The notes: generated by a model not told the origin, from the sequence alone. 64,000 nucleotides of DNA from Deltaproteobacteria bacterium (GCA_013151835.1 JAADHK010000044.1:11447-75446), one strand, 5' to 3'; positions 11,550 through 51,297 are shown, counted from the stretch's first letter. Program-made: numbers and translations.

Positions 11550-11560
11550 TCTATTCATTA

Positions 11561-12957: not shown

Positions 12958-13118
12958 AACAATCCCTTTGTCCTTATTATAAAAATTATAAAAAGTTTGG
13001 CTTTTTACTCCATATCCTCTATTATAGTCCCTGACTGCGATATTCTATACATCAATGGCTCTTTTGTTGTAAATCTTTTTTTATCCGGGCGTTTTTGTAC
13101 ATGCCTTTTGGAGGACCG

Positions 13119-13991: not shown

Positions 13992-14036
13992 TATTTTGTC
14001 GTTTTTCCGGCAAAGAGGTTATTTTTGTCCTAATTC

Positions 14037-14170: not shown

Positions 14171-14186
14171 TAATAAGGAGAAGAAG

Positions 14187-31790: not shown

Positions 31791-31826
31791 TTAATGAAAG
31801 TTGCATTGCAGCAGGGGAGGACCGCC

Positions 31827-33704
31827 ATGTTGATCGTCTTGGAACCAGAGATAACACCGGAACAGAAGAATCACATATTGAGTATCCTGCGCGGAGGAGG
31901 GTGCCTTTTCAGGGAAATTTCAGAAGGCGGGCGGTGTATCATAGGGGCGACCGGCAACGCCGGACACGGGGCGGATTATTTTGAAGGGCTTGCAGGTGTG
32001 GCAAAAGTCGTTCCGGTTTCCACGGCATTCAAGCTGGTCAGCCGGCAGATGCACGTGGCTGATTCGCAAATAAAGATCGGTGACGTGGTAGTGGGCGGTC
32101 CGCGGATCGTTGTGATTGCAGGTCCGTGCGCGGTCGAGAGCCGGGAGCAGATGCATGCCGTGGCAAGGGAGGTCCGTAAATACGGGGCTGTTATGTTTCG
32201 CGGCGGAGCCTTCAAGCCGCGCACGTCTCCATATTCTTTCCAGGGCATGGGCGAGGAAGGGTTAAAGCTCCTTGCCGAGATCAGGGAGACATACTCAATG
32301 CCGGTAGTAACCGAGATTACGACTCCGGCCCAGGCCGACCTGGTCATGAAATATATCGATGTAGTCCAGGTGGGGGCGCGAAACATGCAGAATTTTGAGC
32401 TCTTGAAATGCGTGGGCCGCCTGGGAAAGCCGGTGCTCTTAAAGCGGGGCCTTGCCGCCACCATAGAAGAATGGCTCATGTCCGCCGAGTATATTCTCTC
32501 CGAGGGAAACGACAACGTGATCCTGTGCGAACGGGGGATCCGGACATTTGAACCATATACCAGAAATACGCTCGACCTGTCGGCCATTCCGGTGATCAGG
32601 AACCTGACCCACCTGCCGATTATTATCGATCCGAGCCATGCTACCGGCATGAGGGAAAAGGTCAGTCCCATGGCGCGCGCCGCCATTGCAGCCGGAGCCG
32701 ACGGCCTGATGATTGAGGTTCACAATGATCCGGATCATGCCACATCCGACGGGGCGCAAAGTCTCTACCCAAAGCAGTTCGGCCAGCTCATGCGTGATAT
32801 TTACGTGATTGCGCCGGTCGTGGGAAAACAGCTCGATTATGGGTATCTCGACAAGGCAAGGGCTGTTTCTCGCATGGAAAGGGCCGATGACGGCAAGGGC
32901 AGAAAAGCGGCATTTTTAGGAGAGATTGGAAGCTTCAGCCACAAGGCCTGCCTACAGTATTTCGGAGACAGGGTCGCGCCCATGTCTGTTTCGTCCTTTA
33001 AGACTGTTTTTGATGCAATTGCGGACGGCCGGGCGGACTTCGGGATTGTGCCCATTGAAAACTCCCTTGCCGGCAGCATACACGAAAACTATGATCTTCT
33101 TCTTTCAAGCGGCCTTAAGATAATAGGCGAGATGACGCTTCGGATTAAGCATAACCTCATCGGACATCCGGGGGCTGAAATTGAAAAAATCCGCCGTGTG
33201 CTTTCAATTCCTCTGGTATTCCAGCAATGTCGCCAGTTTCTTGACAATTATCCCGAAATTGAGACGGTTCCGATGACCGATACGGCCCATGCGGTGCGGC
33301 AGGTAAAGGAATCGAAAAGCATGACCGATGCAGCCATAGCAGGTGAGCAGGCAGCGGAGATCTACGGTATGGAGGTGCTTGAGGAAGGGATTGAGACCAA
33401 CCCGAGAAATTTCACGCGTTTTGTGGTGATCGGCACAAAGCCGGTGGAAAAGGCCGAGAAAAAGAAATCATCGATCGTTTTTTCCACCGGTAACCAGCCG
33501 GGAGCCCTTTTTGAAACCCTTAAGGTGTTTGCCGAAAACGGGGTCAACATGGTCAAGCTCGAATCAAGGCCGATCCATGGAAAGCCTTGGGAATACATGT
33601 TCTACGTGGATGTCGAGGCCGACATCGAGGCCGATGAGCGCAGGGATTTTCTGGATCTGCTTAAGGAAAAAACCGAGTATTTGAGGGTGCTGGGGAGTTA
33701 TTGA
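31827..33704 (+). CDS. fused 3-deoxy-7-phosphoheptulonate (DAHP) synthase (type I-beta with N-terminal regulatory domain) / prephenate dehydratase + ACT domain
   Basis: The N-terminal half is collinear with Thermotoga-type DAHPS (IAGPCAVES, GGAFKPRTSPYSFQG, LLKRG, DPSHA). The C-terminal half carries PDT motifs (GSFSHKACLQYF, VPIENSLAGSI, TRFVVIG) and ACT (ESRPIHGKPWEYMFYVD). GGGGAGGA RBS before the ATG at 31827; the ORF opens at 31794, inside the terminator U-tract. Confidence 0.88.
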   Translation: MLIVLEPEITPEQKNHILSILRGGGCLFREISEGGRCIIGATGNAGHGADYFEGLAGVAKVVPVSTAFKLVSRQMHVADSQIKIGDVVVGGPRIVVIAGPCAVESREQMHAVAREVRKYGAVMFRGGAFKPRTSPYSFQGMGEEGLKLLAEIRETYSMPVVTEITTPAQADLVMKYIDVVQVGARNMQNFELLKCVGRLGKPVLLKRGLAATIEEWLMSAEYILSEGNDNVILCERGIRTFEPYTRNTLDLSAIPVIRNLTHLPIIIDPSHATGMREKVSPMARAAIAAGADGLMIEVHNDPDHATSDGAQSLYPKQFGQLMRDIYVIAPVVGKQLDYGYLDKARAVSRMERADDGKGRKAAFLGEIGSFSHKACLQYFGDRVAPMSVSSFKTVFDAIADGRADFGIVPIENSLAGSIHENYDLLLSSGLKIIGEMTLRIKHNLIGHPGAEIEKIRRVLSIPLVFQQCRQFLDNYPEIETVPMTDTAHAVRQVKESKSMTDAAIAGEQAAEIYGMEVLEEGIETNPRNFTRFVVIGTKPVEKAEKKKSSIVFSTGNQPGALFETLKVFAENGVNMVKLESRPIHGKPWEYMFYVDVEADIEADERRDFLDLLKEKTEYLRVLGSY

Positions 33705-35785: not shown

Positions 35786-37927
35786 TTACCACCAGATCTG
35801 TATCGCCAGTACAATCAACAAGCTCATTATCACGTACGCGGCATAGGCGTTTACACTGCCGGAATGCATTTTTGCCAGCAAGTCGGCTATGTAGCGTCCG
35901 CCCCGGAACAGGGGTTTGCCCAGGAGGCGGTCTACTAAATGAACTTCCTTTCGGTCCCTTTTTATCGCACTTCTGAAATGTTCCGATACAGTCTCGCGTG
36001 GATCGGAAATCGTTATAGGTCTGAAAATCGTGGCAAATATTACCCGAACCGGATTGGAAAATCCGGTGGCCGTATAGGTGATATCCGGAATGAGCTTTCG
36101 TATCCCTCCGCTCCAGGCCGGTTTACGCACTAATGCGCGGCCCTTTGTAAATAAACGAACCACAACAAAAGCGCCTGACAAAAGTAAAATCAGCATGACC
36201 ACACTGTATGATGGTGACATGGCAAAAATGACGGGATTTCTTGCAGCGCCCCTGTGCATGATCACAAGGCCTCTTCCGGGAAGTTCGTTTGCGCCGATTT
36301 GTGCGCCGAGCGCATGAAAATCTGAAACAAAGGCTTTGGGGAATTTATTATTCCCGGTTCCCACCGTAAAAAATGGAGGCACCAGCTCGTCTGTTACACT
36401 TTGGTGTACATAGGGCTGAGTTACATGATCCATTACAGGAATTACATAGGTAGGGAGTATGCCGAGCAAAAGGCAGAGCGCGGCAAGTATCCCCATGGAA
36501 ACGGTCATGGTTTTGTCCGCTTCAACGGCATTTTCCGCTTGTTTTGATCTTGCCATCCCGAGAAAGCTCATGCCGAACGCCTTAACAAAACATGTGACCG
36601 CAAGGGCCGCTGTAAGCGCAAGCCCGGCTCCGCACAATACGAACACGATTTTTATTGCCTTGGATGACAAAACAGAACATTGAAGCAGGCTCTGGAGGGT
36701 CAGCCATTCACTCACAAAACCGTTGAAAGGCGGCATGCCCGCAATGGAGAGCGCTCCTGTCAGGAAAAAAAGGGATGTCCAGGGCATCTTTTTAATCAGC
36801 CCGCCGAGGCGGTCCATATTATGGCACCCTCCTGCCCGGCAATCAATCGCCCCTGCTCCGAGGAAAAGAAGACCCTTATAAATCGAATGGTTGGCCATAT
36901 GATAAAAGGCCGCTATAAAGGCGATCCCCGCAAGCGCGGGTTGACCGGAAGAGGCGAATATAAAACCCGCGCCAAGGCCGGCGATGGTTATTCCCATGTT
37001 TTCAATCGAGCTGTGGGCCAGCATTTTTTTCATATCCCTTTCCGGGGTGGCGTAAAGGATGCCAACCAGCGCGGACACTGTTCCCATGATCAGCATGATC
37101 AAACCCGGGCCGACAAAACTGATTGGAAGGATGTCCATGTTTATCCTTACGATCCCGTATATGCCGAGATTGAGGATCACACCGGAAAGAATGGCGGATA
37201 TATTCCTGGGTGATGCAGGGTCGGCAAAGGGAATCCAACTGCTTACGGGTATAAGACCGGCCTTGACTCCAAAACCGAAAAAGGAAAGCAGAAATACCGC
37301 CCAGCGGGCAATATGCCCCAGGGCGGACGCATCGGACCGGAGCGCGGCAAAGGCAATATCGCCGTGGCCGTTTGCAATTGTGATAAACGCAAGGAGTGCG
37401 GCAATGGTTCCAGCCTCGCTCATGGCGAGCATCAGGAAGCCGGAACGGGTTTTCTCATCATCTTCATGTTCATAGTTTACAAGCAGGTAACAGAGAATGG
37501 ACATGGCCTCCCATGCAATGAAGAACAGAAAAATATCACCTGCAATAAGAATCAGGACAACAGAGGCAAAGAGAAGGTGAAAAAACAGGTTAAACGATTT
37601 TAAGCTGTATTTCCCTATATATTGTTTCATGTATCCTGCCGAAAAGATAGAAACAGGGAAGAAGACCAGCCCGCAGATGAAAAGAAAGAGCGCTGAGATC
37701 CGGTCTATTTCTATAACCAGCTTGCCGAATGGAGCAAGATACCACAGGGGCTCAACAAATGTCCGGCCTGATAAAAGCAGGCTTCCGCTAAGCCATAACA
37801 GGATAAGAGAGGAAACAGCCCCGGTAAATGCAATGACAGCGGGGTTTTTTTTGTCGGGTAGTATCGCCCCGATAAGCGGACCTGCCATGCAGGTTATAAA
37901 AAAAAGAGGGAGGAGTTTTACCATCAT
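35786..37927 (-). CDS. NuoL/HyfB-like Mrp-antiporter-type membrane subunit of an Ehr/Hyf-like complex
   Basis: ~713 aa and polytopic, with the typical proton-pumping-subunit pattern (…WEAMSILCYLLV…, …AHSSIENMG…). The ATG at 37927 overlaps the upstream stop (ATGA); the ORF opens at 38011. Confidence 0.85.
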   Translation of the reverse strand: MMVKLLPLFFITCMAGPLIGAILPDKKNPAVIAFTGAVSSLILLWLSGSLLLSGRTFVEPLWYLAPFGKLVIEIDRISALFLFICGLVFFPVSIFSAGYMKQYIGKYSLKSFNLFFHLLFASVVLILIAGDIFLFFIAWEAMSILCYLLVNYEHEDDEKTRSGFLMLAMSEAGTIAALLAFITIANGHGDIAFAALRSDASALGHIARWAVFLLSFFGFGVKAGLIPVSSWIPFADPASPRNISAILSGVILNLGIYGIVRINMDILPISFVGPGLIMLIMGTVSALVGILYATPERDMKKMLAHSSIENMGITIAGLGAGFIFASSGQPALAGIAFIAAFYHMANHSIYKGLLFLGAGAIDCRAGGCHNMDRLGGLIKKMPWTSLFFLTGALSIAGMPPFNGFVSEWLTLQSLLQCSVLSSKAIKIVFVLCGAGLALTAALAVTCFVKAFGMSFLGMARSKQAENAVEADKTMTVSMGILAALCLLLGILPTYVIPVMDHVTQPYVHQSVTDELVPPFFTVGTGNNKFPKAFVSDFHALGAQIGANELPGRGLVIMHRGAARNPVIFAMSPSYSVVMLILLLSGAFVVVRLFTKGRALVRKPAWSGGIRKLIPDITYTATGFSNPVRVIFATIFRPITISDPRETVSEHFRSAIKRDRKEVHLVDRLLGKPLFRGGRYIADLLAKMHSGSVNAYAAYVIMSLLIVLAIQIWW

Positions 37928-38658
37928 AGTGCACCTCCGTCTTTCTGCTTTCGGAATTTTCCGGATGCCAGAAGGAGCCCGTGGATAATCGCAAGGGGCG
38001 GAGGCGGGCATCCGGGAATCTCCACATCCACGGGCATAGTTTTGCCGATGCCCCCTTGTGCGGCAAAACTCGGTCCGAAGACGCCGCCCGAAAGCGCACA
38101 GGTGCCCACGGCAATTACAACCTTTGGCGTGGGCATGGCTTCAAAGGTTTTTTCAAGTGAAAGGCGCATGTGCTCTGTCAGGGGGCCTGCGACCATCAAC
38201 ACGTCAGCCATCCTGGGAGTGGGGGTGATAAATAGGCCGAGCCGGTGGACGTTGTAATAAGGGCTTGCCATGAGTTTTATCTCGCTTAAGCAGGCCGCAC
38301 ATGCCCCGGCATCCACAATTCTGATATGGACAGAACGTGTAAATGCAGGGCCAAGAGGCTTACCTGCCGCAGTAAAGTCCGCCCATTCATAGCCATCATC
38401 CCGGGTGATGCGGTTTTGAGCTAAACGGCTGCACCTGAAGCAGTCGATGCAGCGCCTCTGCTCCAGCGATATCCCGTCTTTTGTAGAGGTCAGCGCATCC
38501 GCGGGGCATGATTCCGCAATCGATTTAAAATCTTCTGTCCCCTCAATGCCGCTTACCCCCGGCCTGCCGGGTGAAACACCTTCGGCGGTTTCATGAATCC
38601 CGGGATAACCCGTTGTCTTTATGCCGGTCTTAAGACCCTTTACCACCCATTTTGTCAT
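37924..38658 (-). CDS. NuoB/HycG-like small subunit with an N-terminal ferredoxin-like extension
   Basis: The core carries DAGACAAC...GTCALSGG...PGCPPPP (NuoB / hydrogenase small-subunit cluster ligands). The N-terminal ~95 aa carry SCPADA and CIDCFRC. GGAG RBS. Confidence 0.85.
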   Translation of the reverse strand: MTKWVVKGLKTGIKTTGYPGIHETAEGVSPGRPGVSGIEGTEDFKSIAESCPADALTSTKDGISLEQRRCIDCFRCSRLAQNRITRDDGYEWADFTAAGKPLGPAFTRSVHIRIVDAGACAACLSEIKLMASPYYNVHRLGLFITPTPRMADVLMVAGPLTEHMRLSLEKTFEAMPTPKVVIAVGTCALSGGVFGPSFAAQGGIGKTMPVDVEIPGCPPPPLAIIHGLLLASGKFRKQKDGGAL

Positions 38659-38728
38659 ATTTATTTACTCCGTGTCCGGTTTTTGATTATGCCGGAACAA
38701 ATTGTTTCCATTGACTATATTTACATCG

Positions 38729-40333
38729 CTATCGATCAGATTCGGCAATACAGAGCCCGAATGTGGCCATGATTATGGGGAAATCCTGGAATGCGAAGTT
38801 TTCAGCCGCAAGATGGAAACCATGCCAGTTTACAAACGACGGCGTCATAACCCTGTAGCGGAGGACTTCTCCGTTTTCTCCAAGACGCACCCAGTGAAAG
38901 GCGGCACCCAGAGGCGCCTCCACACGGCCCAGGGCATAGCCGGGTTTCAGGTCAATATCGACATTAACCGGTCCGGAAGACAGGGACGACGCCACCTGGG
39001 AAATCAGGTTTACGGATTGTTCCGCCTCGGCGAACAGGACCCGGAGGCGGGCATACCCGTCCCCTTCCTGCTCCCTGGGCACGTGAAACCTCAGGCCGTT
39101 GCCATAGCCTGCGTACGGCCATATTTCACGAAGATCACGTGAAAGCCCGGATGCCCTTGCGACCGGACCCACGAGCCCGTATGACACGGCATTGTCGGCT
39201 GAAACCATTCCCACCTGCTCAAGCCGGTCCAAAAAGGAGCTGGTAAACATGAGCATCTCTTTAAGCTCTTTCAGCTTATCTGTGATATCCCAGGCCGCCG
39301 TGCTTATTTTTCCGCATTCTTCATCGGTCAGATCAAACGAAAGGCCGCCTATGGTATTTGCCCCGAACAGATACCTGTGCCCGGTGAACCGGCATGTCAG
39401 CCGCAAGAGCTTTTCCTCTGAAATTTGCGCCTGGCTTGCTGCAACCGCCAGCCCGGTTGAGGCGCAAATCCCTGCAATGGCCGTGACATGATGCCGGAAT
39501 CGTTCAAGCTCTGCAAGAAGCGCCCTCAAAGCCTTTGCCCGTTCAGGCGCCTCAACTCCGCATATTTCCTCCACCGCCTGGCAAAAGGCAAGGGAGTGGG
39601 CAAACGCACAAGTCCCTGAAAACCGTTCCGCAATGAGCAAAACGTCATCAACCGTTTTCCCCTCGGATATCTTTTCTATTCCGCGATATTTGTAAAAAAA
39701 TCTTAAAATAGTCCGGATCACGTCTTCGCCCACGGTTTCCAAAAGAAAATGGGCTGACTCGGCGTAATCCGAATAGACCGGCCCGACGGGCATCATAAAA
39801 GCACCCTGTGATTCCACAAGCGCCATTGGTCGCCAGTCGGGATCGGGCTCCCTGTTGGGATAAGGCATTGCGGCGTTAAATGATTTTCGCATGGGGTTTA
39901 CGCCCTCGGGCCATTCTTCGTGAAGGACAAAATCACCCAGGCGAGGATGGCCTTCAAAAACAAGACCGAACAGATCTTCGGCTTCCCTTTCCTGCCAGTC
40001 CGCGGCATGGACATGGTGGCTGATACTTGGAACTATGGTCTGCGATAAGGGTAAATTAACCAGGACATTTACCTGCCCGGCCCCGGGCTCGCCATAAAAA
40101 ATATAGGTAAGTTGCAGGGATGAAGCGTTTTCCTCCACCACGATGGTGGCAAAGCTCAACTCCAGTTCTGAAAAGAGCCATTCGCAGACATCCTGCAAAC
40201 AGGCTGTATCCGATTCCAGGTATGCGCAAAGCCCGACAGTATCGAGATTTACCCTGACTCTTCCCTGCCAGCGGGAATCGACTTCATCTGGAATCTCAAT
40301 AAATTTTACAATATTATTTAACGGAAGTCCCAT
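38729..40333 (-). CDS. fused NuoC-NuoD / HycE-like large subunit lacking two of the four NiFe cysteine ligands
   Basis: NuoC-like FGLVFEGHPRL. NuoD/HycE-like core with ERFSGTCAFAHS in place of RxCGxCxxxH, and C-terminal FGLCIAESDR-stop in place of DPCxxCxx[HR]. Confidence 0.85.
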   Translation of the reverse strand: MGLPLNNIVKFIEIPDEVDSRWQGRVRVNLDTVGLCAYLESDTACLQDVCEWLFSELELSFATIVVEENASSLQLTYIFYGEPGAGQVNVLVNLPLSQTIVPSISHHVHAADWQEREAEDLFGLVFEGHPRLGDFVLHEEWPEGVNPMRKSFNAAMPYPNREPDPDWRPMALVESQGAFMMPVGPVYSDYAESAHFLLETVGEDVIRTILRFFYKYRGIEKISEGKTVDDVLLIAERFSGTCAFAHSLAFCQAVEEICGVEAPERAKALRALLAELERFRHHVTAIAGICASTGLAVAASQAQISEEKLLRLTCRFTGHRYLFGANTIGGLSFDLTDEECGKISTAAWDITDKLKELKEMLMFTSSFLDRLEQVGMVSADNAVSYGLVGPVARASGLSRDLREIWPYAGYGNGLRFHVPREQEGDGYARLRVLFAEAEQSVNLISQVASSLSSGPVNVDIDLKPGYALGRVEAPLGAAFHWVRLGENGEVLRYRVMTPSFVNWHGFHLAAENFAFQDFPIIMATFGLCIAESDR

Positions 40334-40335
40334 TT

Positions 40336-41793
40336 TTATCTCCCGAGAGAAAGCGCGGCAAGGCGCAAAAGGTTATGGAGATGGCCGGGGATATAAAGCC
40401 CGAACAATATGACCGGAACTATTGCAAGCAGCAGGGTCAGCCTGCATGTAAACGGCAGACTCAGGCCTTGCGGGCAGCAGCCTGACGGCCGACCGAAAAC
40501 CATTTTATTGACTCTGTACATGATCCCGCAAAAGGCGATTACGATAAAGAGCGCAAGAAGGGCGATAACCAGATAATGGCCCCCTGCCAATCCTGCGCTG
40601 ATGATGGAAAATTCACTTAAAAAAACCGCAAAAGGAGGAGCGCCGGCAATGGCCAGGCCACCGATAAGCAAACAAACCCCCGCCAGCGGGGAGGTCCGGA
40701 TCATACCCTTTACCGAAGATATATCGCGGGTGCCTGAAAGCAGCAGGACCGCGCCTGCGGCAAAAAAGCAAAATGATTTTGTAAAGGCATGGGCCATGAT
40801 TTGATAAACAACACCGAGGTGAGCCGCTTGCCCCCCGAGTCCTGCGGCAACGAGTATTATCCCCATGTGTTCAATCGTGGAAAAGGCAAAAAGCCTTTTA
40901 TAATCCGTGACCTGAAGCAGGAGAAAAGCCGCTGTCCCAACGGAGACAAGTCCGAAAATCATGAGCCACATGGAGGCATAATCGTTCGGTATAACCTTAA
41001 TGACAGGCAGAAGCCTTATGATGACATATAGGGCCGTTGTGGTTTCAACACCGGAAAGCAGGGCGCATACAGGCGACGGGGCCTGACTGTGAGCATCCGG
41101 AAGCCAGGTATGAAGAGGCACGAGCCCGGCTTTTGTCCCGAACCCGATGAGAATAAATAAAAAAGCAACGGCAAGAAATAATGGCGGAATATTTGGAGAG
41201 ACGGCGATCAGTTCCGACCAGGTAAATGCGCTGCCCCCGGCAATAGTCAACCCACGATAAAGAATTAAAATACCGATGAGTGCAAAGGCGGCTCCCATAC
41301 ATGTAAGAATCACATACTTCCATGCCGCCTCAAGCGACTCGGCTGTTTCTTCAAAACTGACCAGAAAAACTGAAAAGAGCGTTGTAAGCTCCACGGCGAT
41401 CCATACCATGGCCAATTGCGAAAGCATCGGGACCGCAAGCATGGAAAGCAAAAAAAGGTTATAGCGGGCATAATAACGCCGTACCCCGCCGGAGCCGACC
41501 TTCTTTGCCGCATCTCCAATATATCCAAAGGAAAAAATGGATGCCGTAAGACCCACAAAGGAAATCAGCAGAAGGATCAACGCGCTCAAGGGATTACACG
41601 ATAGCCATCCCTTTATCCCCGGTGTATTTTGCGCCATACCCGAATGAGGGTAAATGGCAATGTGAAGCGAAAGGATAAAGACCGAAAATGCGGCTATGAT
41701 TGTCATTGCGGCCGCAAATTTGCCCTTTTTTGTGTGAATAAGGGAAAGAACAGCGGCAACAAGGGGTATCAGCAGTATGATTAAAAGCTCCAT
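40336..41793 (-). CDS. NuoN/HyfF-like antiporter-type membrane subunit
   Basis: 485 aa and polytopic, with …LPDAHSQAPSPVCALLSG… and …FSTIEHMG… motifs typical of NuoM/N/HyfF proteins. Confidence 0.85.
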   Translation of the reverse strand: MELLIILLIPLVAAVLSLIHTKKGKFAAAMTIIAAFSVFILSLHIAIYPHSGMAQNTPGIKGWLSCNPLSALILLLISFVGLTASIFSFGYIGDAAKKVGSGGVRRYYARYNLFLLSMLAVPMLSQLAMVWIAVELTTLFSVFLVSFEETAESLEAAWKYVILTCMGAAFALIGILILYRGLTIAGGSAFTWSELIAVSPNIPPLFLAVAFLFILIGFGTKAGLVPLHTWLPDAHSQAPSPVCALLSGVETTTALYVIIRLLPVIKVIPNDYASMWLMIFGLVSVGTAAFLLLQVTDYKRLFAFSTIEHMGIILVAAGLGGQAAHLGVVYQIMAHAFTKSFCFFAAGAVLLLSGTRDISSVKGMIRTSPLAGVCLLIGGLAIAGAPPFAVFLSEFSIISAGLAGGHYLVIALLALFIVIAFCGIMYRVNKMVFGRPSGCCPQGLSLPFTCRLTLLLAIVPVILFGLYIPGHLHNLLRLAALSLGR

Positions 41794-41799
41794 AACTCT

Positions 41800-42453
41800 T
41801 TATTTCTCCTTCAGGCTTACCATCTTCCCCACCATTGTGGTTCCGACACGCTTATGTATCTTCCTGGTAAGAATCCCGATGACAAGGGCGATGATCAATA
41901 CATCAAAGGCCGCTGCCAGTTCGGAAATAAGCGGCATGTTCGGGGCTATGGATATGCCTGCGAAAAACGCCCCGTTTTCCATGGTTAAAATTCCGATAAG
42001 CTGGGGCAGGGCCTCTCTTCTGACCGTTATAGCATAGGCGCCCAGAAGCACACCGGCAAGGCCGATGGGAAGGTTGACCTTTATAAACGGCGTGGAATCT
42101 ATACCCAGGAGGGGATGTACGACAAAATAGGCAAAAATCGTCAGCCCGGCCGCTATGAGCAGGGATGAGGGGATGTTGATGACATGGGTGATCTCCCTGC
42201 GCGCATGGATTTCATGGCTGAACATATTGTAAAGCAGCCAGGGAATCAGCAGCCCCTTGGCGCCGATGGTTATGCCCGCGACAACAAACAGGTGGATGGA
42301 ACCATGCACAACGCCCAGGATACAAGCGGATATTGCAAGCAGGATTGATTGAAGAACAAAGAGCCTGATTCCCCCAAGCATCTGGCGTACGGATATGATG
42401 CCAAAAACAGTAATGATAAACAGCCCGCCCACAAGTGCGTTTAATTGCGCCAT
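41800..42453 (-). CDS. HyfE-like small membrane subunit (NuoK-related)
   Basis: 217 aa and entirely hydrophobic. Its position and size match hydrogenase-4 component E. GGAGA RBS. Confidence 0.75.
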   Translation of the reverse strand: MAQLNALVGGLFIITVFGIISVRQMLGGIRLFVLQSILLAISACILGVVHGSIHLFVVAGITIGAKGLLIPWLLYNMFSHEIHARREITHVINIPSSLLIAAGLTIFAYFVVHPLLGIDSTPFIKVNLPIGLAGVLLGAYAITVRREALPQLIGILTMENGAFFAGISIAPNMPLISELAAAFDVLIIALVIGILTRKIHKRVGTTMVGKMVSLKEK

Positions 42454-42468
42454 TTTTTCTCCTATCTC

Positions 42469-43419
42469 CTACAACTCAAGAATCTGAATAATGACCGCAA
42501 CCACAGAGGTAACAAAGGCAAAGCCCAGAAATTCAGTGATGCGAAACAATCGTAATTTAGAAAGTGATGATTCGATGAATGCCAAAATCAGTATAAAACA
42601 GAACATCTTCAATAGAATAAGCGGAATTGCGCAAAAAAGTCCCCACAGGCTGCTTCCGGTGGCAAGCCCCCATGGAGATACAAGCACGTTTAAAAATATA
42701 CAAAGCAGCACGAAAAACTTCATACATCCACCCCATTTCATCAGCGCAGCGCCCCGGCCGGAATATTCAAGCCCTTTTGATTCATCAATCATGGCCAGCT
42801 CGAAATGGCCCGAAGGGTTGTCCACCGGGATACGGCCGTTTTCCGCGATGATGAGCATCACAAAAGCAAGTATTACCAGGATATGTGCCGGAGAAAAAAA
42901 GTTTGCAAAGGGTGTGATCCATGCCTGCTGAACGATGTAGGGAATTGTAGAACCGGCAACAAATGAAACGGTAAAGAACACGATCATAAAAACCGGTTCG
43001 GCAAGGAAGCCGACCATGCGCGTTCGGCTTGCCCCCATGGGCCCATACGGATTTGCCGTATCAATAGCGGCAAGGGTCGCGAAGAATCCCCCGAGGGCAA
43101 GCACGGAACCACCGGCCAGCATGTCGCCCATGAATGCAAAAAAGAGTGGATAATCCGTGAGCACCGGAATCAAAAGGGTCACAAAGATGGGGGCGATAAA
43201 AACCACATAGGGGGTGATACGAAATATCCATGAGCTTTCATCCGATATCACTTCGTCTTTATGAAACAGTTTCCAGATATCAAAGTACGGCTGGAAAATG
43301 CTTGGCCCTTTTTTGGATTGAATCCGTTCCTTCAGACGGTCCAGTATGCCTTTAATTAACGGCGAAAAGAGCATTACAACAACAACCTGAATGACGTTAA
43401 ATAATATTTTTTCAGGCAT
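42469..43419 (-). CDS. NuoH/HycD/HyfC-like membrane subunit
   Basis: 316 aa and polytopic, with an N-terminus typical of the family (…LKERIQSKKGPSIFQPYFDIWKLF…). AAGGAGG RBS. Confidence 0.85.
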   Translation of the reverse strand: MPEKILFNVIQVVVVMLFSPLIKGILDRLKERIQSKKGPSIFQPYFDIWKLFHKDEVISDESSWIFRITPYVVFIAPIFVTLLIPVLTDYPLFFAFMGDMLAGGSVLALGGFFATLAAIDTANPYGPMGASRTRMVGFLAEPVFMIVFFTVSFVAGSTIPYIVQQAWITPFANFFSPAHILVILAFVMLIIAENGRIPVDNPSGHFELAMIDESKGLEYSGRGAALMKWGGCMKFFVLLCIFLNVLVSPWGLATGSSLWGLFCAIPLILLKMFCFILILAFIESSLSKLRLFRITEFLGFAFVTSVVAVIIQILEL

Positions 43420-43615
43420 TTATATGCCTCCTTTTCTTTGACTACACTTGACGGCAAATGGTTGCTAAATGCGTCTCATCCGGCAAATTGGCATAGATTT
43501 GACCAAAGGAAGTGGCGCGGATAATTAAAATGTCACAGTGGCGCATGACCGGGGATATACCGGGAAGGATTGCCGGTATGGGGTGTCGAAACAGCTTATG
43601 CTCCGGTAGTATCAT

Positions 43616-43652
43616 AAAAAAAACTCCCACCAAGGGGTTGTCATGGCAGGAG
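43616..43652 (-). terminator. intrinsic terminator / attenuator hairpin in the region upstream of the Ehr-like operon
   Basis: On the minus strand: CUCCUGCCA, an 11-nt loop, UGGUGGGAG (9 bp including two G-U pairs), followed by eight U residues. It lies about 195 nt upstream of the operon start codon. Confidence 0.55.
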
Positions 43653-43815
43653 TCATTAGCAGTTATATGCAGTTATAGGTGAACTCCATCACCTTACATT
43701 TTATGTATTAAGCGAATTTATTTATCAAATTTTTAAATTTTGTCAAGCTTTTTTGGCTTTTGCAATAACCTAACCGGCAACGCTGAAGCTTTTTGGAAAA
43801 ATTTACTAAAAATTC

Positions 43816-43863
43816 TTGACACAAACTTTTATCGGGTCTACATATTAATAAGTGATAATATGT
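43816..43863 (+). promoter_or_regulatory. promoter candidate with an overlapping ArsR-type operator palindrome
   Basis: TTGACA (43816-43821), a 17-nt spacer, then TACATA. A perfect inverted repeat ACATATTA-N8-TAATATGT (43840-43863) overlaps the -10 element. Confidence 0.55.
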
Positions 43864-43926
43864 TCATACTTTCATGCGTTCGTCCCGCCGAAGGCGGGTT
43901 CGGCGTTTACAAAAAAGGAGAAAAGG

Positions 43927-44343
43927 ATGGAGCGGATATTGAATAAAAAGAACGAGGCATCTGTAAGTTCCGGCGAAGCCTGCTCAGTAAAAACAGTTCA
44001 TGAAGATGTTGTGGAATCGGTTAGGCAAAACATGCCGTCCCAGGTTTCGCGTTTTGAGCTTGCCGATTTTTTCAAGCTTTTTTCAGACAGCACCCGTATT
44101 TCAATCCTGTGCGCCTTGTCTGAATCCGAAATGTGCGTTTGTGATCTTTGTGCGCTTTTAAACATGAAGCAGTCAGCTATTTCGCACCAGTTACGGACTT
44201 TAAAGCAGGTTAGGATCGTGCGCAACAGGCGCGAAGGCAAGAGTGTTTATTACGCTCTTGATGATGATCATATTCGGGAGGTTATGAAAGTCGGCATGGC
44301 CCATGTAACGGAACCGCAAAAATTAAAGGGGGAGCCGGCATGA
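43927..44343 (+). CDS. ArsR/SmtB-family metal-responsive repressor (CadC/CzrA-like)
   Basis: Winged-helix region with the metal-site motif SEMCVCDLCALL. AAAGGAG RBS before the ATG at 43927; the ORF opens at 43852. Overlaps the ATPase start. Confidence 0.85.
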   Translation: MERILNKKNEASVSSGEACSVKTVHEDVVESVRQNMPSQVSRFELADFFKLFSDSTRISILCALSESEMCVCDLCALLNMKQSAISHQLRTLKQVRIVRNRREGKSVYYALDDDHIREVMKVGMAHVTEPQKLKGEPA

Positions 44344-46499
44344 CCATTCAATACCGTATCGAAAATCTTGACTGCCCCTCGTGCGCAGCAAAAATAGAAA
44401 ACGCCGTAAATCGGATTCCAGGGGTAGAAACTGCTTCAATCGATTTTATTTCAAGAGTGATTCATATCAGGGCATCTGACAATGCGGCCTCTCTTAAAAC
44501 AGTGCAGAACGCCATCGGGGCGGTAGATTCCGTGGTGTCGGTCATTGACGAAGGCGGGAAGGTTTTGTCCCGTGACAACGGGGATGAAAAAAGAGGCGGT
44601 GCCGTACGCGAATTTCAGGTCATGGGTCTTGCAATGATCCTCTTTGGTTTTGTCCTGTTTGTAGAATATTATGCAAAGGAGCCCATGATTTTAAACGCCG
44701 GGCTGGCTGTGGGAATAATTGCCTGGCTTCTTTCCGGGGCAGGCGTGATAAAAAAAGCGGTGGGCACGCTTTTTCGCGGCCGTTTTTTTGATGAAAACGT
44801 ACTTATGATGATTGCAACCCTGGGCGCTTTTTACATAGGGGCCGTATCAGAGGCCGTGGGCGTCATGATTTTTTACAGAACAGGCGAACTGCTCCAGAAC
44901 CTTGCGGTGGGCCGTTCTAAAAAAGCCATAACTTCGCTTCTGGCCACAAGACCCGATACGGCTAATATCTGCGAGGGCAACGGCACAAAACAGGTCCCGG
45001 CCCGGGAGTTAAAACCCGGAGACATGATCATGGTAAGGCCGGGTGAAAGGGTGCCTGCTGACGGACAAGTGGTGTCCGGCCAGTCTTTTCTTGACACAGC
45101 AGCCCTTACCGGTGAACCGGTGCCGAAAAATGTCCATGAGGGCGAATCGGTTCTTGCCGGCATGATCAACAGGGACGGGTTGTTGACAGTGAGCGTGACC
45201 CGGCCGTTTTCCGAATCCACAATCTCGAAAATGATTGCCCTGGTTGAAAGTTCCGGGGCGAAAAAGGCAAAAACAGAACGTTTCATCACAACCTTTGCCG
45301 GGTATTACACGCCGGTCGTGGTGCTTGGTGCAGCGGCAATCGCGATTGTGCCGCCGCTTTTTGTTCCCGGCGCTCTTTTTTCCGACTGGCTGTACCGTGC
45401 CCTCGTCCTGCTTGTGATTTCCTGTCCCTGTGCTTTGATGATAAGCATTCCCCTGGGATATTTCGGCGGAATAGGGCGCGCATCCAAGATGGGGATACTC
45501 GTAAAAGGGGCGGAATTCATTGATACGCTATCAAATCTTAAAACCGTGGTCTTTGATAAGACAGGGACCCTTACGCTCGGCGTGTTCACGGTTAAGAATA
45601 TTATGGCCTCAAACGGATTTTCAAAAAACGACGTGCTTAAATACGCAGCGGCAGCAGAGCGGCATTCCAATCATCCGATTGCGAAATCGATCATAGCGGC
45701 TGCGGTTGACCGTGGATTTACGATTGATTCAGGGCAGGTCGGAAACGTCGATGACTACGAAGAACTTCCCGGAAAAGGTGTTCGAACGTTTGTTGATGGT
45801 CAAAGGGTCATTGCCGGTACCCGGAAATTTCTTGAATCCCAAGGTATTGATGTCGCACATTTTTCTGAAAAGGATGGCACCATGGTTTTTGTAGCCGTGG
45901 ACGAAAAATGTGCCGGGGCTGTTGTCATAGGAGATGAGATTCACCCCAAGGCGCAAACCGCTGTCCTGCGCCTGCGAAAAATGGGAGTTGAAACCATAAT
46001 GATGCTCACCGGAGACAACCAGAGCGCAGCCAAAAGCGTAGCTGAGCGCCTCGGGCTTGACGGGTATTTGGCGGGCCTCCTCCCTGATCAAAAGGTAGAG
46101 GCGTTTGAGCGGATCATGGAAAACGCAAAAAGTTCCGGACGTCAAACCGGGCGCACCGCCTTTGTGGGCGACGGCGTAAACGATGCGCCGGTAATCGCCC
46201 GGGCCGATGTGGGCGCGGCCATGGGCGCGCTTGGTTCCGATGCGGCAATAGAATCGGCCGATGTCGTTTTGATGTCAGATTCCCCGGAGCGCATGGCCGA
46301 CGCCGTGGCCATGTCAAAACATACCCGCGTTATTGTGTGGGAAAATATCATATTTGCGCTGGTGGTAAAAGTGGCTTTTATCAGCCTCGGTGTTTTCGGG
46401 ATGGCAACCATGTGGATGGCTGTGTTCGCGGATGTAGGGACGGCCCTGCTTGCGGTGGTAAATTCCATGCGCGTGATGGGCGGGGTTCCCGATGCATGA
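44340..46499 (+). CDS. heavy-metal (Cd/Zn/Co-type) translocating P1B-type ATPase
   Basis: N-terminal HMA domain CPSCAAK, TM6 SCPCALMIS, phosphorylation site FDKTGTLT, hinge GDGVNDAP. Confidence 0.92.
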   Translation: MTIQYRIENLDCPSCAAKIENAVNRIPGVETASIDFISRVIHIRASDNAASLKTVQNAIGAVDSVVSVIDEGGKVLSRDNGDEKRGGAVREFQVMGLAMILFGFVLFVEYYAKEPMILNAGLAVGIIAWLLSGAGVIKKAVGTLFRGRFFDENVLMMIATLGAFYIGAVSEAVGVMIFYRTGELLQNLAVGRSKKAITSLLATRPDTANICEGNGTKQVPARELKPGDMIMVRPGERVPADGQVVSGQSFLDTAALTGEPVPKNVHEGESVLAGMINRDGLLTVSVTRPFSESTISKMIALVESSGAKKAKTERFITTFAGYYTPVVVLGAAAIAIVPPLFVPGALFSDWLYRALVLLVISCPCALMISIPLGYFGGIGRASKMGILVKGAEFIDTLSNLKTVVFDKTGTLTLGVFTVKNIMASNGFSKNDVLKYAAAAERHSNHPIAKSIIAAAVDRGFTIDSGQVGNVDDYEELPGKGVRTFVDGQRVIAGTRKFLESQGIDVAHFSEKDGTMVFVAVDEKCAGAVVIGDEIHPKAQTAVLRLRKMGVETIMMLTGDNQSAAKSVAERLGLDGYLAGLLPDQKVEAFERIMENAKSSGRQTGRTAFVGDGVNDAPVIARADVGAAMGALGSDAAIESADVVLMSDSPERMADAVAMSKHTRVIVWENIIFALVVKVAFISLGVFGMATMWMAVFADVGTALLAVVNSMRVMGGVPDA

Positions 46500-46502
46500 T
46501 TT

Positions 46503-46653
46503 GTAGGGGCGGCCCCCTGTGGCCGTCCTTTTTGCCGCACAAACGGTACAGGCAGAATGTCATATTCAAAATTCGACGTTGGATGTTCGACGTTCATGGT
46601 AAATTCGGGCAGGCACGGGGGCAAAAAGGGCAGGCACGGGGGCCTGCCCCTAC
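46503..46653. repeat. REP/REPIN-like inverted doublet C1
   Basis: The left unit is GTAG-GGGCGGCC-CCCTGT-GGCCGTCC (46503-46528). The right unit is GGGCAGGC-ACGGGG-GCCTGCCC-CTAC (46628-46653), preceded by a partial duplicate at 46607-46621. The interior carries the heptamer module at 46572-46594. Confidence 0.75.
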
Positions 46654-47450
46654 GGGTGACCGGTTTGAGCCTTGTATGCCCGGGTCTGCTCGGCAATCAA
46701 AGCCGGCAAATCCGGGTTTTTTATGTTTGTTTCGATTGTTCGTTCAAAGGCGCTTCCGATAACAACCCCATCGGCCATTTTTGACATCCGCGCCACGTCA
46801 TCCGGCGTTGAAATCCCGAAGCCCACGCAAATTGGAAGCGTTGTAACGGATTTGAGCATGTCCGTATGAACCCGGATATCGGTTGTATCGAGCCCGTCGC
46901 TTCCCGTGACACCGGTCTTTGAAACAAGGTAAATAAATCCTGACGCATTTTCGGCAATATTTTTCATCCTTTGTTTCGGCGTGGTCGGAGCCACCAGGCG
47001 GATAAGCGAAAAATCCGTATCATCAAATATGTCCGTTAATTCATCTGATTCCTCGGGCGGAAGATCGACTACCAGAACTCCGTCCGCGCCAACGGCAACG
47101 GCGTCTTTGTAAAACCTGCGGTTCCCATACGCGAGTATCGGGTTGTAATAGGAAAATACAATCACCGGGATTTCATGTTTTTTACGCAGCCCGGCGATCA
47201 TTTCAAGCACGCCCGCAAGGGTCATGCCCTGCCTGATCGCACGAGAAGATGATCTTTGGATTACGGGTCCGTCTGCCGTGGGGTCCGAAAACGGAACGCC
47301 GAGTTCAAGGATATCGATCCCGCCTTCGCACATGGCAGTGATGATTTTTTCGGAAGTCCCGCGGTCGGGATCACCTGCTGTGACAAAACCCACAAGCGCG
47401 GTTTCCCCTTTTTCATTCAGTTTTTTAAATGTATTTTCTATCCGGCCCAT
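46650..47450 (-). CDS. trpA: tryptophan synthase alpha chain
   Basis: Typical TrpA pattern (LELGVPFSDPTADGPVIQ) and position after trpB. Confidence 0.93.
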   Translation of the reverse strand: MGRIENTFKKLNEKGETALVGFVTAGDPDRGTSEKIITAMCEGGIDILELGVPFSDPTADGPVIQRSSSRAIRQGMTLAGVLEMIAGLRKKHEIPVIVFSYYNPILAYGNRRFYKDAVAVGADGVLVVDLPPEESDELTDIFDDTDFSLIRLVAPTTPKQRMKNIAENASGFIYLVSKTGVTGSDGLDTTDIRVHTDMLKSVTTLPICVGFGISTPDDVARMSKMADGVVIGSAFERTIETNIKNPDLPALIAEQTRAYKAQTGHP

Positions 47451-47461
47451 TATTTTTCCTT

Positions 47462-48673
47462 TTATTTTAAGGTTGCAGGAAAGGATGTGACTATCCCAAG
47501 GTCTTTGTCCCCCCGGCCGGACAGATTGACCACTATGATTTCGTTTTCCGGCCGTTTTTCAGCCTCCTTCATTGCAGCGGCAAGGGCGTGGGAGCTTTCA
47601 AGGGCCGGGATTATCCCTTCGGTGCGGCACAAGACGTGGAATGCGTTTAATGCTTCGGCGTCAGTGATGGCAGTGTAGGAGATTCGGCCGAGGTCTTTTA
47701 AAAGAGAGTGTTCCGGTCCCACGCCCGGGTAATCGAGACCTGCCGAGATGGAATGGGCCTCTTTTATCTGGCCGTTTTCATCCTGAAGGAGATACGATTT
47801 AGAGCCGTGAAGCACGCCCACGCTCCCTGCGCAAAGGGTTGCCGCGTGTTTTTTTGTTTCGATTCCCATGCCTGCCGCTTCAACGCCAAGAATTTCGCAA
47901 TCGTCTTGCAAAAAGGGGTAAAAAAGACCCATGGCGTTGCTTCCTCCGCCTACACAGGCGACCAGAAGATCAGGCAGGCGGCCTGCTTGTTTGATAACCT
48001 GATCCCGGGTTTCTTCTCCTATAATTTTCTGGAAATCACGTACCATGGCCGGGTAGGGGTGGGGGCCCGCAACCGACCCTATGACGTAAAAGGTGTCATT
48101 TACAGCCGACACCCAGAAGCGCAATGCCTCGTTCATGGCGTCTTTCAGGGTTCCGGTGCCTGTGGATACCGGGATTACCTCGGCCCCGAGCAATTCCATC
48201 CGTTTCACGTTGGGCGCCTGGCGCACGATATCCTCGGTCCCCATGAATATCCTGCATTCCATGCCGAAAAACGCAGCCGCAGTGGCTGTGGCAACCCCGT
48301 GCTGGCCGGCCCCGGTTTCCGCGATCACCTTTTTTTTGCCCATGAACCGGGCTAAAAGGGCCTGGCCGAGAGTATTGTTGAGCTTGTGAGCACCCGAGTG
48401 GAGCAGGTCTTCACGTTTCAACCAGATGGCCGCGCCTCCAATCTTCCGGGTAAGTCTCTGTGCAAAATAGAGCGGCGTGGGTCTTCCTGCGTAATCTGCA
48501 AGCATGGCCGAAAGCTCTTTTTGAAATTTCGGCATAATCGAAAATTTCTTGTAGGCGTCTTCGAGCTCGAGTACTGCGGGCATGAGCGTTTCTGCGATAT
48601 AACGTCCGCCATAAGGGCCGAAATGTCCTTTTTCATCCGGCATTGGACCTGATTTGCGATTTTCCGGGTTCAT
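47462..48673 (-). CDS. trpB: tryptophan synthase beta chain
   Basis: PLP-lysine context HSGAHKLNN and GGGSNAMG. Confidence 0.95.
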
Positions 48674-49354
48674 CTAAAAAATCCTCCTGCATCCGTTATC
48701 TATTTTCGTCCTGTGTACGAGATGAATAAGTTTGGAAACGCGGCTAAGGTTCTTTTTGCCCGCCATTTCTTCTACGCCTGAACTTACATCAATCGCGCCC
48801 GGGCTGGTTTTTTGCATCGCCTCGACTACATTTTCAGGTTTGATTCCGCCGGCAAGGACCAGCGGATACTTTTCGGAAAAGGCACGGGCGGTCTCCCAGT
48901 TCCACGAAAGGGCGTTGCCGCCCGGAAGTCTTCCCCCCGCGCATTCCAGCAGATATGCGGAGGCCCCGTAACGGTGGGCCTTGTTCATATTCGGCTCGGC
49001 GTTGATATAAAGCGATTTAATCACCTTGATGCCGTTTTTTACCAGTCGTTTCACAAGGGCGGGCGTCTCTTTTCCGTGAAGCTGGACCCCGGAAAGGCCG
49101 CATTCATTGATGGCGCTTATAATTGTGTTATAGGAAGCGTCCACGAAAACGCCGATCTTCGCGACGCTGTCCCCCACGGCATCACAGATGGCGGATGCCT
49201 GCTCCCGGGTGACATTTCGGGGGCTTTCTTCAAAAAATACGAGTCCGATGGCGTCAACTCCAAGCCGGGCGCACAAAAGCGCCTGCTTCGGGATCGTGAG
49301 ACCGCAAACCTTCACCTGCGGACAGGTTTGTCGGATAATAGTTTTCTTTGTCAT
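48674..49354 (-). CDS. trpF: phosphoribosylanthranilate isomerase
   Basis: VKVCGLT N-terminal motif, ~226 aa, located between trpC and trpB. Confidence 0.9.
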   Translation of the reverse strand: MTKKTIIRQTCPQVKVCGLTIPKQALLCARLGVDAIGLVFFEESPRNVTREQASAICDAVGDSVAKIGVFVDASYNTIISAINECGLSGVQLHGKETPALVKRLVKNGIKVIKSLYINAEPNMNKAHRYGASAYLLECAGGRLPGGNALSWNWETARAFSEKYPLVLAGGIKPENVVEAMQKTSPGAIDVSSGVEEMAGKKNLSRVSKLIHLVHRTKIDNGCRRIF

Positions 49355-49368
49355 GGGCTGTTCTCCAA

Positions 49369-50157
49369 TTATATCGTTGTCAAGTGTCGCAGCATTGCCG
49401 CAGGATCTTCACTTCTTACCAATGCCTCGCCGATAAGGAAATTGTTGATTCCGTTTTTCATATTATCCGTGATATCGGTCTTAAATCGGATGCCGCTTGC
49501 GCATACAACAATACGGCCTTCCGAAAGCCTGGCCGTGAGCTTTCGGGCATGGTTTACATCCGTTTCAAATGTGTTCAGATTTCGATTGTTGATCCCTATG
49601 ATACCGGCATCGGTTTTACAGGCCTTTTCCATGTCTTCTTCTGTGTAGACCTCCACCAGTGCATCCATGCCGAGCTTTCGGGCAAGGCGAAGCAGGGATT
49701 TTAATTTGGAAAGCGTCAGGATGCACGTGATCAGCAGCACGGCATCCGCACCGATTGCAGCCGACTCATAAATCTGGTATTCTGATATGATAAAATCCTT
49801 TCGAAGCACCGGAAGGGCGGTCGCAAGCCTGGCTTGGGTAAGGTCGAAGAGATTGCCGGAAAAAAAACGGGTGTCCGTAAGCACGGAAAGGGCCATGGCT
49901 CCTCCCCGTTCGTATGCAACGGCCTGTTTCGCGGCATCGAGGTCTGGGGCAATTGATCCCGCTGATGGTGATGCCCGCTTTATTTCGGCTATAATATTGA
50001 TCCTGTTGGCGCTATTTTTGAGGCTTTGACCGAGAGGGCGGAAATCCCTGCGTTTCTCGGCCTCCTGTCGCATTTTTTTTTCGGGTATGTGCTTTTTTGA
50101 ATTTTTTATAACCTGTTTTTTATGAACAACAATTTTATCCAGGATATTTTGTTTCAT
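49369..50157 (-). CDS. trpC: indole-3-glycerol-phosphate synthase
   Basis: EIKRASPSAG and LSVLTD motifs. Confidence 0.93.
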   Translation of the reverse strand: MKQNILDKIVVHKKQVIKNSKKHIPEKKMRQEAEKRRDFRPLGQSLKNSANRINIIAEIKRASPSAGSIAPDLDAAKQAVAYERGGAMALSVLTDTRFFSGNLFDLTQARLATALPVLRKDFIISEYQIYESAAIGADAVLLITCILTLSKLKSLLRLARKLGMDALVEVYTEEDMEKACKTDAGIIGINNRNLNTFETDVNHARKLTARLSEGRIVVCASGIRFKTDITDNMKNGINNFLIGEALVRSEDPAAMLRHLTTI

Positions 50158-51173: not shown

Positions 51174-51204
51174 AAAGTTCCCTCCTTTCCTGCGTTTCAT
51201 TTTC

Positions 51205-51297
51205 GTAGGGGCGGCCCCCCGTGGCCGCCTGATTTCCGAGGGTGTATCAGCCTTATGAAAAATTTCAGAGAGGGCAGGCACAGGGGCCTGCCCCTAC
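51205..51297. repeat. REP/REPIN-like inverted doublet C2 (intercistronic, trpG-trpD)
   Basis: GTAG-GGGCGGCC-CCCCGT-GGCCGCC (51205-51229) and GGGCAGGC-ACAGGG-GCCTGCCC-CTAC (51272-51297). Confidence 0.8.

Follow-up and report, generated by a model that had tools for sequence, protein, structure and literature searches.

A NiFe-free, hydrogenase-like operon behind a predicted fluoride riboswitch in a deltaproteobacterial genome

What does a hydrogenase-derived membrane complex do when its large subunit no longer carries the cysteines that hold a NiFe centre? The question is raised by a 64-kb stretch of DNA from a Deltaproteobacteria bacterium (GCA_013151835.1, JAADHK010000044.1, positions 11447-75446; the whole stretch is called the window here), in which six co-directional minus-strand open reading frames (ORFs; 35786-43419) encode homologues of group-4 [NiFe]-hydrogenase and complex I subunits, named H, E, F, L, S and B in the order of the genes. 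An earlier note, made from the sequence alone, had read these genes as an energy-converting hydrogenase-related (Ehr) complex, a ferredoxin-fed ion pump with a pocket for a quinone-like or other acceptor, and had overlooked a fluoride riboswitch on the same strand ahead of gene H (Table 1). Judging from the sequence, we are highly confident of two things taken together: that the locus encodes an Ehr-type, NiFe-free six-subunit complex descended from Hyf- or formate hydrogenlyase (FHL)-type group-4 [NiFe]-hydrogenases, and that transcription of the operon is gated by a predicted fluoride ON riboswitch. That the complex works as a fluoride-induced, Fe-S-driven proton or cation pump, countering the acidification and uncoupling mediated by hydrogen fluoride (HF), is a proposal to which we give about an even chance.

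The riboswitch RF01734 (crcB motif) was the sole Rfam family matched in the whole window, and the match was full length (model positions 1-64 of 64) with a core, GGUGAUGGAGUUCACC...AAUGACUCCUGC, that fits the consensus. The aptamer lies ~220 nt upstream of gene H, and its 3' strand doubles as the 5' arm of an intrinsic terminator, which is the layout of an ON-switch expression platform and the usual design of fluoride ON switches (PMC2864571). With fluoride bound, the pseudoknot would hold the 3' strand, the terminator would be blocked and the operon would be read through. A consensus scan overlooked this terminator, whose loop exceeds 8 nt, and folding recovered it; its GGGAG-U7 element is also found in five related loci (L001-L003, L023 and L048, of the locus set described below). 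The same kind of scan did not list the candidate promoter just upstream of the aptamer, which was read by eye and has only three of six matches in its -10 hexamer. Gene H begins ~200 nt past the U-tract (leader 43419-43616, minus strand); a 57-aa ORF in this leader was considered as a hidden gene and rejected, as it is not conserved in sister loci. Leaders of 187-213 nt are found in Desulfobacterota loci, and in Terriglobia-type loci the aptamer stands 19-38 nt from the start codon, suggesting that control may be transcriptional in the former and translational in the latter.

Searching with the large subunit yielded 50 loci from species-representative genomes, in which the gene order H-E-F-L-S-B was identical in 30 and broken in none. 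The operon loci belong to Desulfobacterota, Nitrospirota (including a Nitrospira metagenome-assembled genome, MAG), Acidobacteriota, Thermoleophilia, Phycisphaerae, Bacillota, Spirochaetia and Proteobacteria, and those linked to the riboswitch span Desulfobacterota, Nitrospirota, Acidobacteriota, Actinomycetota, Planctomycetota, Bacillota, Spirochaetota and Proteobacteria. RF01734 lay directly upstream, on the operon strand, at gathering score in 28 related loci; three seeming exceptions carried matches of 32.6-33.8 bits, just under that score, at exactly the expected position, so that none of the 31 related loci that include DNA ahead of the operon is without the element. The pseudoknot pairs covary over 30 operon-linked aptamers. 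No RF01734 match was present in 142 kb around seven Cys-containing (true NiFe) relatives. CrcB, DUF190, paired MutS-domain-V proteins, enolase and metallophosphoesterase recur as neighbours in the related loci, and these are textbook fluoride-regulon genes; a CrcB gene stands alongside the operon in eight of the loci, and in two others (L029 and L030) the riboswitch is followed by a phosphoesterase and an enolase gene that abut the operon.

The six genes are tightly packed (intergenic gaps of 15, 6, 2, 70 and -4 nt), each is preceded by a GGAG-type ribosome-binding site, and the last junction, S/B, is a 4-nt ATGA start/stop overlap; all six ORFs lie at the coordinates given in the earlier note. 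Among solved structures, L, S and H come nearest to E. coli FHL subunits (HycE, HycG and HycD, respectively), and these three subunits are homologous to the core of group-4 [NiFe]-hydrogenases and complex I, while F and B are Mrp/antiporter-like and both carry PF00361, as in Ehr complexes. None of the six subunits reached an NCBIfam equivalog cut-off, and subunit E had no solved homologue in a PDB search (MbsG at E=0.21). Pfam scans of the 44 ORFs of at least 150 aa agreed with the earlier note that the 64-kb window holds no hyp, hycI, formate dehydrogenase (FDH), carbon monoxide dehydrogenase (CODH) or NuoEFG genes. These subunit matches, the broken motifs described below and the presence of just six genes bear out the assignment as Ehr-type, neither a NiFe hydrogenase nor a standard Nuo/Fpo complex.

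Table 1. Features of the operon, its control region and the adjoining gene (window coordinates; MFE, minimum free energy).
Feature	Coordinates	Strand	Evidence
H: HycD/NuoH-like membrane anchor, 316 aa	42469..43419	-	PF00146, E=3e-31; best PDB HycD 7z0s_D, E=1.6e-41
E: HyfE-like small membrane subunit, 217 aa	41800..42453	-	NCBIfam hydrogenase-4 membrane subunit, 73.5 bits vs cut-off 136
F: HyfF/NuoN-type antiporter-like subunit, 485 aa	40336..41793	-	PF00361; HyfF models up to 366 bits
L: fused NuoC-NuoD/HycE-like large subunit, 534 aa	38729..40333	-	PF00329 + PF00346 + N-terminal part of PF00374 (NiFeSe_Hases)
S: HycG/NuoB-like small subunit, 244 aa	37924..38658	-	PF01058; best PDB HycG, E=2e-29
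B: HyfB/NuoL-type antiporter-like subunit, 713 aa	35786..37927	-	HyfB model 572 bits; PF00361
Fluoride riboswitch aptamer (crcB motif, RF01734)	43640..43702	-	55.2 bits vs gathering score 34; E=1.4e-12, whole window
Intrinsic terminator, 11-bp stem GACUCCUGCCA / UGGUGGGAGU(U) then U8	43616..43654	-	MFE fold
Candidate promoter: TTGACA (43746-43741), 16-nt spacer, TGn-TAAATA (43727-43719)	43719..43746	-	By-eye reading, just upstream of aptamer
Bacterial dynamin-like GTPase (BDLP), 594 aa	33698..35482	-	Dynamin_N E=4e-30; Nostoc BDLP 2j68 E=1e-25

The cysteine register of the large subunit was set by aligning L to E. coli HycE (7z0s_E, E=5e-66) and P. furiosus MbhL. At the four NiFe ligand positions L has S239 (C1), C242 (C2), C528 (C3) and E531 (C4), and both CxxC motifs are broken (S..C and C..E). 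In the HycE alignment the N-terminal metal motif pairs DRVCGICGFAHS with ERFSGTCAFAHS, a third stretch pairs GPLHVTSDEPGHF with GPVYSDYAESAHF, and the C-terminal DPCYSCTDR of HycE faces GLCIAESDR-stop, L terminating at the Arg beyond which HycE continues for another 32 residues. The register read by eye in the earlier note (C1 to Ser, C4 to Glu) and its observation that L has no cleavable maturation tail were therefore upheld. The four-Cys signature of [NiFe]-hydrogenases (RxCGxCxxxH and DPCxxCxx(H/R)) is absent from L; the proximal-cluster ligands are present in S.

The rest of the family goes further. All four cysteines are gone in ~170 close homologues (50-72% identity) and in cluster representatives from many phyla: in the database, the 119 homologues nearest to window L (59-72% identity) have ERFSGTSAFAHS and GLSNAE[S/C]DR, with Ser at both positions where the window has Cys, and ~38 loci from the species-representative genomes read ERF[S/A][G/A]T[S/T]AFAH and GLS[N/V]AE[N/C/S]DR. 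Relatives at 30-33% identity (L038, L040-L045 and L047) keep full CGIC and DPCxxC motifs. When 1.8 billion cluster representatives were searched, 109 of those retrieved spanned all four ligand positions, with residues read by BLAST-based column mapping; 32 of these are CCCC, that is, true hydrogenases, all at no more than 39% identity to window L, and those at 40% identity or above are all Cys-less, with Glu or Asp at the fourth position in all but one (ASVS). The S-C-C-E pattern of window L occurred in none of the 109. A neighbour-joining tree, drawn with no curated HydDB-type reference set, nested window L within a Cys-less Desulfobacterota subclade, and the Cys-less clade that holds it includes the Nitrospira MAG sequence. 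Since window L is unique in its two cysteines (both encoded by TGT) and is nested among Cys-less sequences, C242 and C528 read as derived, secondary Ser-to-Cys gains and as no conserved partial metal site; by homology their side chains should be adjacent. The earlier statement that two of the four cysteines had been lost thus holds for window L and fails as a family trait, the relatives being without all four.

Across the family the ligand positions are now S/A, S/T, S and E/D, and E192, R237, H246, H480 and D533/R534, which form the second sphere of the former active site, do not vary. The residues of L that align opposite Tyr87 and His38 of Nqo4, which we take to be the quinone head-group ligands of complex I, are Gly240 and Ala191, and neither position has Tyr or His in any family member. 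A quinone site was rejected on this ground, leaving the quinone-like pocket of the earlier note unsupported in its complex-I form. An AlphaFold monomer of L (predicted template-modelling score, pTM, 0.82) found its nearest fold in HycE 7z0s_E (TM 0.76).

Some further large subunits were seen in these searches. Among the representatives P0151-P0270 there is a second large Cys-less clade, with S-x-S-G at the four positions, which at 30-39% identity is as distant from window L as are the true CCCC hydrogenases; rare partial patterns (CCCA, CCCD, AQCD and CESG) also occur. A Bacillota MAG (L032) has two divergent paralogous clusters, 0-6357 (-) and 6743-14276 (+), each with its own fluoride riboswitch, 6405-6476 (-) and 6586-6655 (+), and its second large subunit (L032m), with Gly as the fourth ligand-site residue, is a member of this deeper S-x-S-G clade. 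A Syntrophus MAG (L046, 9938-11844) encodes a Cys-less large subunit, 43% identical, together with a small subunit, and has no H, E, F or B homologue within 10 kb upstream, which may represent a different architecture.

Conservation in the small subunit, counted over 38 loci, points to retained electron transfer. S has an N-terminal extension of ~115 residues with the pattern C-P...CxxCxxC (C51-P, C70xxC73xxC76; Fer4_15 match, 23.1 bits), in which all 38 sequences have C51, C70 and C76, and 36 of them C73; by sequence this is probably a single-[4Fe-4S] ferredoxin-like domain standing in for a separate HycF/NuoI subunit. The proximal-cluster ligands C120, C123, C187 and C217 line up with those of HycG and MbhJ. 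C120 and C187 are invariant (38/38) and C123 is present in 36/38, while the fourth ligand, C217 (PGCPP), is found in half of the loci (19/38) and is otherwise A, S, N, Q or F. All 19 sequences without C217 have Asp119, reading GDCGAC instead of GACGAC, and Asp119 and C217 occur together in three (L011, L017 and L032). This directional covariation suggests a Cys-to-Asp ligand exchange in which the cluster would be kept, giving a site-differentiated proximal [4Fe-4S] cluster.

The membrane subunits have likewise kept their working parts. Both F (K221, H228, K339 and E394, all invariant) and B (K222, H347, K351 and E407, all invariant) retain the TM7 Lys, the His/Lys relay and the TM12 Glu, and H is the most conserved subunit (63-86% identity over complete loci), with invariant pump residues and its long acidic loop kept. 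On these alignments the Fe-S ligands and pump residues are under selection. In Terriglobia-type loci a second HyfB-like gene directly follows the first (L013 4995-7142, L019 14659-16806, L020 8856-11003, L026 14702-16843 and L036 3723-5756), which would give three antiporter-like subunits there.

The operon is best placed by comparison with known systems. With the Ehr complexes of Nitrospira/Nitrospirales, Margulisbacteria and others (PMC10284858, PMC12342949, PMC6349859) it shares group-4-like subunits, the absence of CxxC NiFe motifs and antiporter-like subunits, and at the Nitrospira MAG locus (L012) the order is likewise H-E-F-L-S-B, the large subunits are 56% identical and the riboswitch is present; only window L, however, has cysteines at two of the sites where the four ligands once stood. 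Some published Ehr complexes have been proposed as FDH partners (PMC6349859), whereas the window has no FDH gene. E. coli Hyc (PDB 7Z0S) and Hyf have in common with the operon the closest solved homologues of L, S and H, membrane subunits of HyfB/E/F type and CxxC-type proximal ligands, but the operon is without the NiFe ligand set, the maturation tail and HycB/HycF/FdhF, and has instead a ferredoxin-like domain fused to the small subunit and the fluoride riboswitch.

The membrane-bound sulfane reductase (MBS/Mbx) of P. furiosus (PDB 6U8Y; PMC7684303) is likewise a hydrogenase-derived respiratory complex without NiFe. Its large subunit MbsL keeps two of the four cysteines, which are dispensable for catalysis, and its proximal [4Fe-4S] cluster has one non-Cys-coordinated iron that is catalytic (PMC7684303), a parallel to the Cys217/Asp119 exchange seen in half of the family studied here. 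However, MBS is built of 13 subunits, among them a complete Mrp module (MbsA-E, G, H and H'), against six genes here, its similarity is far lower (MbsL 94 bits against 227 for HycE, with MbsJ and MbsM also far weaker than the Hyc matches), and its pocket is hydrophobic where that of the window family is polar; no sulfur link is evident at the window locus. Complex I (Nuo/Nqo) shares the NuoB-D-H-L/N core, and NuoD likewise lacks all four NiFe cysteines, with an acidic residue at the C4 position (Asp in Nqo4, Glu in window L). It differs in having at least 11 core subunits, three of them antiporter-like, whereas the operon has six genes, no NuoA/J/K/I/E/F/G and unrelated flanks; the quinone ligands are not conserved, and the proximal cluster is bound by CxxC rather than the tandem CC of NuoB. 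The seven-subunit Mrp antiporter (MrpA-G) has no redox cap; only MrpA/D-like subunits are found in the window, where L and S are kept with their Fe-S ligands. The fluoride riboswitch regulon (crcB/Fluc, CLC-F, Na+/H+ antiporters, enolase and MutS-like genes) has the same aptamer-terminator design, and genes of that regulon lie in related loci.

How might such a complex serve a cell exposed to fluoride? HF entry acidifies the cytoplasm and dissipates the proton-motive force, on which export through Fluc and CLC-F depends (PMC11139923). In the mechanism that we propose, electrons from a soluble low-potential donor, most likely ferredoxin, would enter the extra [4Fe-4S] domain of S and pass to the proximal [4Fe-4S] cluster, which adjoins the old NiFe pocket, now remodelled and polar; ferredoxin is a plausible donor because S has this extra single-cluster ferredoxin-like domain. 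The resulting redox or protonation change would be relayed through the HycD-like subunit to the two antiporter-like subunits, which would expel H+ (or Na+). The expelled protons would replace those carried in by HF and keep up the membrane potential and pH gradient for fluoride export, and the pump, being powered by low-potential electrons and not by ATP, could be useful when ATP-dependent routes are poisoned. We infer that the operon has a function akin to that of the Na+/H+ antiporters in the fluoride regulon, of which those of Mrp type share ancestry with it.

An Fe-S-fed ion pump, as in the earlier note, appears to be the most plausible function, with the conserved Fe-S ligands and pump residues in its favor, and its induction by fluoride is favored by the riboswitch in 31/31 loci and the fluoride-regulon neighbours. 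Several points weigh against this proposal. Its main weakness is that, with the complex-I quinone ligands absent, the model lacks an electron acceptor. The flanking ORFs of 39 loci, once clustered, yielded no gene for a conserved redox partner (FDH, NuoEFG or CODH) and only fluoride-regulon genes, and fluoride-inhibited enolase might cause the supply of reduced ferredoxin to fall rather than rise. By tblastn, the 64-kb window has no fluoride exporter, CrcB included, and no DUF190, MutS-like or enolase gene. The AlphaFold model is poor precisely at the pocket, with a predicted local distance difference test score (pLDDT) below 50 at residues 166-214 (the beta1-beta2 loop) and 499-534 (the C-terminus).

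The alternative that survives best, unlikely as we judge it, is a redox-independent, Mrp-like cation/proton antiporter that acts under fluoride stress, with the L/S cap and its Fe-S clusters as structural or regulatory relics. In its favor, the membrane subunits are members of the Mrp/antiporter family, and among gene classes behind fluoride riboswitches only the exporters are commoner than Na+/H+ antiporters (PMC11139923); the failure to find either an acceptor site or a redox partner gene also fits it. Relics, on the other hand, would hardly keep seven Fe-S ligand cysteines over eight phyla, nor replace the eighth only where Asp precedes the first ligand, a pattern typical of a functional cluster; the invariance of second-sphere E192, R237, H246, H480 and D533 tells in the same direction.

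The view taken in the earlier note, a general ferredoxin:acceptor bioenergetic oxidoreductase to which the riboswitch would be incidental, seems improbable to us. The architecture would fit an energy-converting oxidoreductase, and Ehr is treated as a possible energy-conserving complex in hydrogenase papers (PMC6349859; PMC10284858). The riboswitch is nevertheless present in all the loci with upstream DNA, across phyla, and absent around NiFe relatives, and a dedicated ON switch kept this faithfully speaks against a respiratory role with constitutive expression.

The complete linkage to the riboswitch also speaks for a primary redox-driven fluoride/HF machine, in which the former NiFe cavity, with its retained Glu/Arg/His second sphere, would bind fluoride, HF or a metal-fluoride species and electron input would be coupled directly to expulsion of that species, beyond proton pumping. 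The cavity residues S/T242, S528, E531 and E192 are hard, polar and conserved, and a non-Cys proximal ligand position, present in half of the family, is catalytic in MBS (PMC7684303). We nonetheless consider this idea about as improbable as the preceding one: no anion pathway is known in this protein superfamily, export is apparently covered by Fluc where CrcB lies alongside (eight related loci), and the predicted structure is unreliable at the pocket. Least credible is a true H2-evolving FHL or hydrogenase, or a novel two-cysteine metal site peculiar to window L, since, for all that source annotations read 'formate hydrogenlyase subunit 5', that the best solved homologues are E. coli FHL subunits and that C242 and C528 occupy two Ni-ligating positions of hydrogenases, both CxxC motifs are broken, other family members have none of the four cysteines, the window cysteines are unique and derived (a partial NiFe site was rejected because no relative conserves them), hyp, hycI and FDH genes are wanting in the window, the two cysteines retained by MbsL are dispensable in MBS (PMC7684303), and the Ehr of N. 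moscoviensis is not induced by H2 (PMC12342949).

Two literatures can be joined here. The crcB-motif paper lists 'formate hydrogen lyase' among downstream genes (PMC2864571), and the operon class was so listed in 2010 and 2012, as a common fluoride-riboswitch-associated gene class (PMC2864571, PMC11139923); a 2024 review, which cites Baker et al., read the link as a shift to formate fermentation (PMC11139923). That literature takes the genes as real formate-oxidising FHL, whereas the sequences here are NiFe-free Ehr. Ehr genes, for their part, occur in about half of Nitrospirales genomes (PMC12342949) and have been published as of 'function unknown', with fluoride regulation unmentioned (PMC10284858, PMC12342949, PMC6349859). 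Full-text searches of an open-access collection found no paper tying Ehr to fluoride. The Ehr complex and the riboswitch class were each already known; the window locus and its relatives show that the riboswitch-linked 'formate hydrogen lyase' genes and the function-unknown Ehr genes are one and the same, and that they cannot encode hydrogenases. The 'formate hydrogenlyase' label has been propagated in databases onto non-hydrogenase genes and is here corrected; the entry identical to window L (a Deltaproteobacteria MAG) is named 'hypothetical protein'. Ehr function becomes directly testable via fluoride, and fluoride tolerance may include an unrecognised energy-coupling component, of relevance to nitrifiers, soil Acidobacteriota and organofluorine bioremediation.

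A dynamin-like GTPase gene lies 303 nt downstream of the operon on the same strand in the window and is a possible seventh member of the fluoride-induced unit. Such a gene adjoins the operon in ten related loci (L008 10057-10665, L017 5011-6789, L048 4516-6369 and L014 3640-5463; also L012, L019, L031, L037, L034 and L002), often with its own fluoride riboswitch or between riboswitch and operon. It stands after the riboswitch and before the operon in L017, where it abuts the operon, in L048 and in L014, where the riboswitch match upstream of it is below gathering score; in L008 it follows the operon. The recurrence of this GTPase suggests that cells respond to fluoride in part by remodelling or repairing membranes; we found no mention of the GTPase in the literature cited here. 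At L034 (11991-13585) a cyclopropane-fatty-acyl-phospholipid synthase gene sits directly behind its own fluoride riboswitch and adjoins the operon, consistent with lowered membrane permeability to protons or HF.

Other genes of the window were noted in passing. A 990-aa pyruvate-formate-lyase-like glycyl radical enzyme (14187-17159, plus strand) bears no relation to the Ehr operon finding. Divergent from the riboswitch promoter region are an ArsR-family regulator and a heavy-metal P-type ATPase with an HMA domain (43852-46499, plus strand), and the Rfam scan of the window showed no RF01734 match on the plus strand at these genes. Aromatic amino-acid genes flank the operon on both sides, namely a DAHP synthase/prephenate dehydratase fusion (31794-33704, plus strand) and a trpEGDCFBA-like operon (46650-53368, minus strand); chorismate mutase is common near fluoride exporters according to the 2024 review (PMC11139923), and the adjacency of the aromatic amino-acid genes to the operon may be coincidental.

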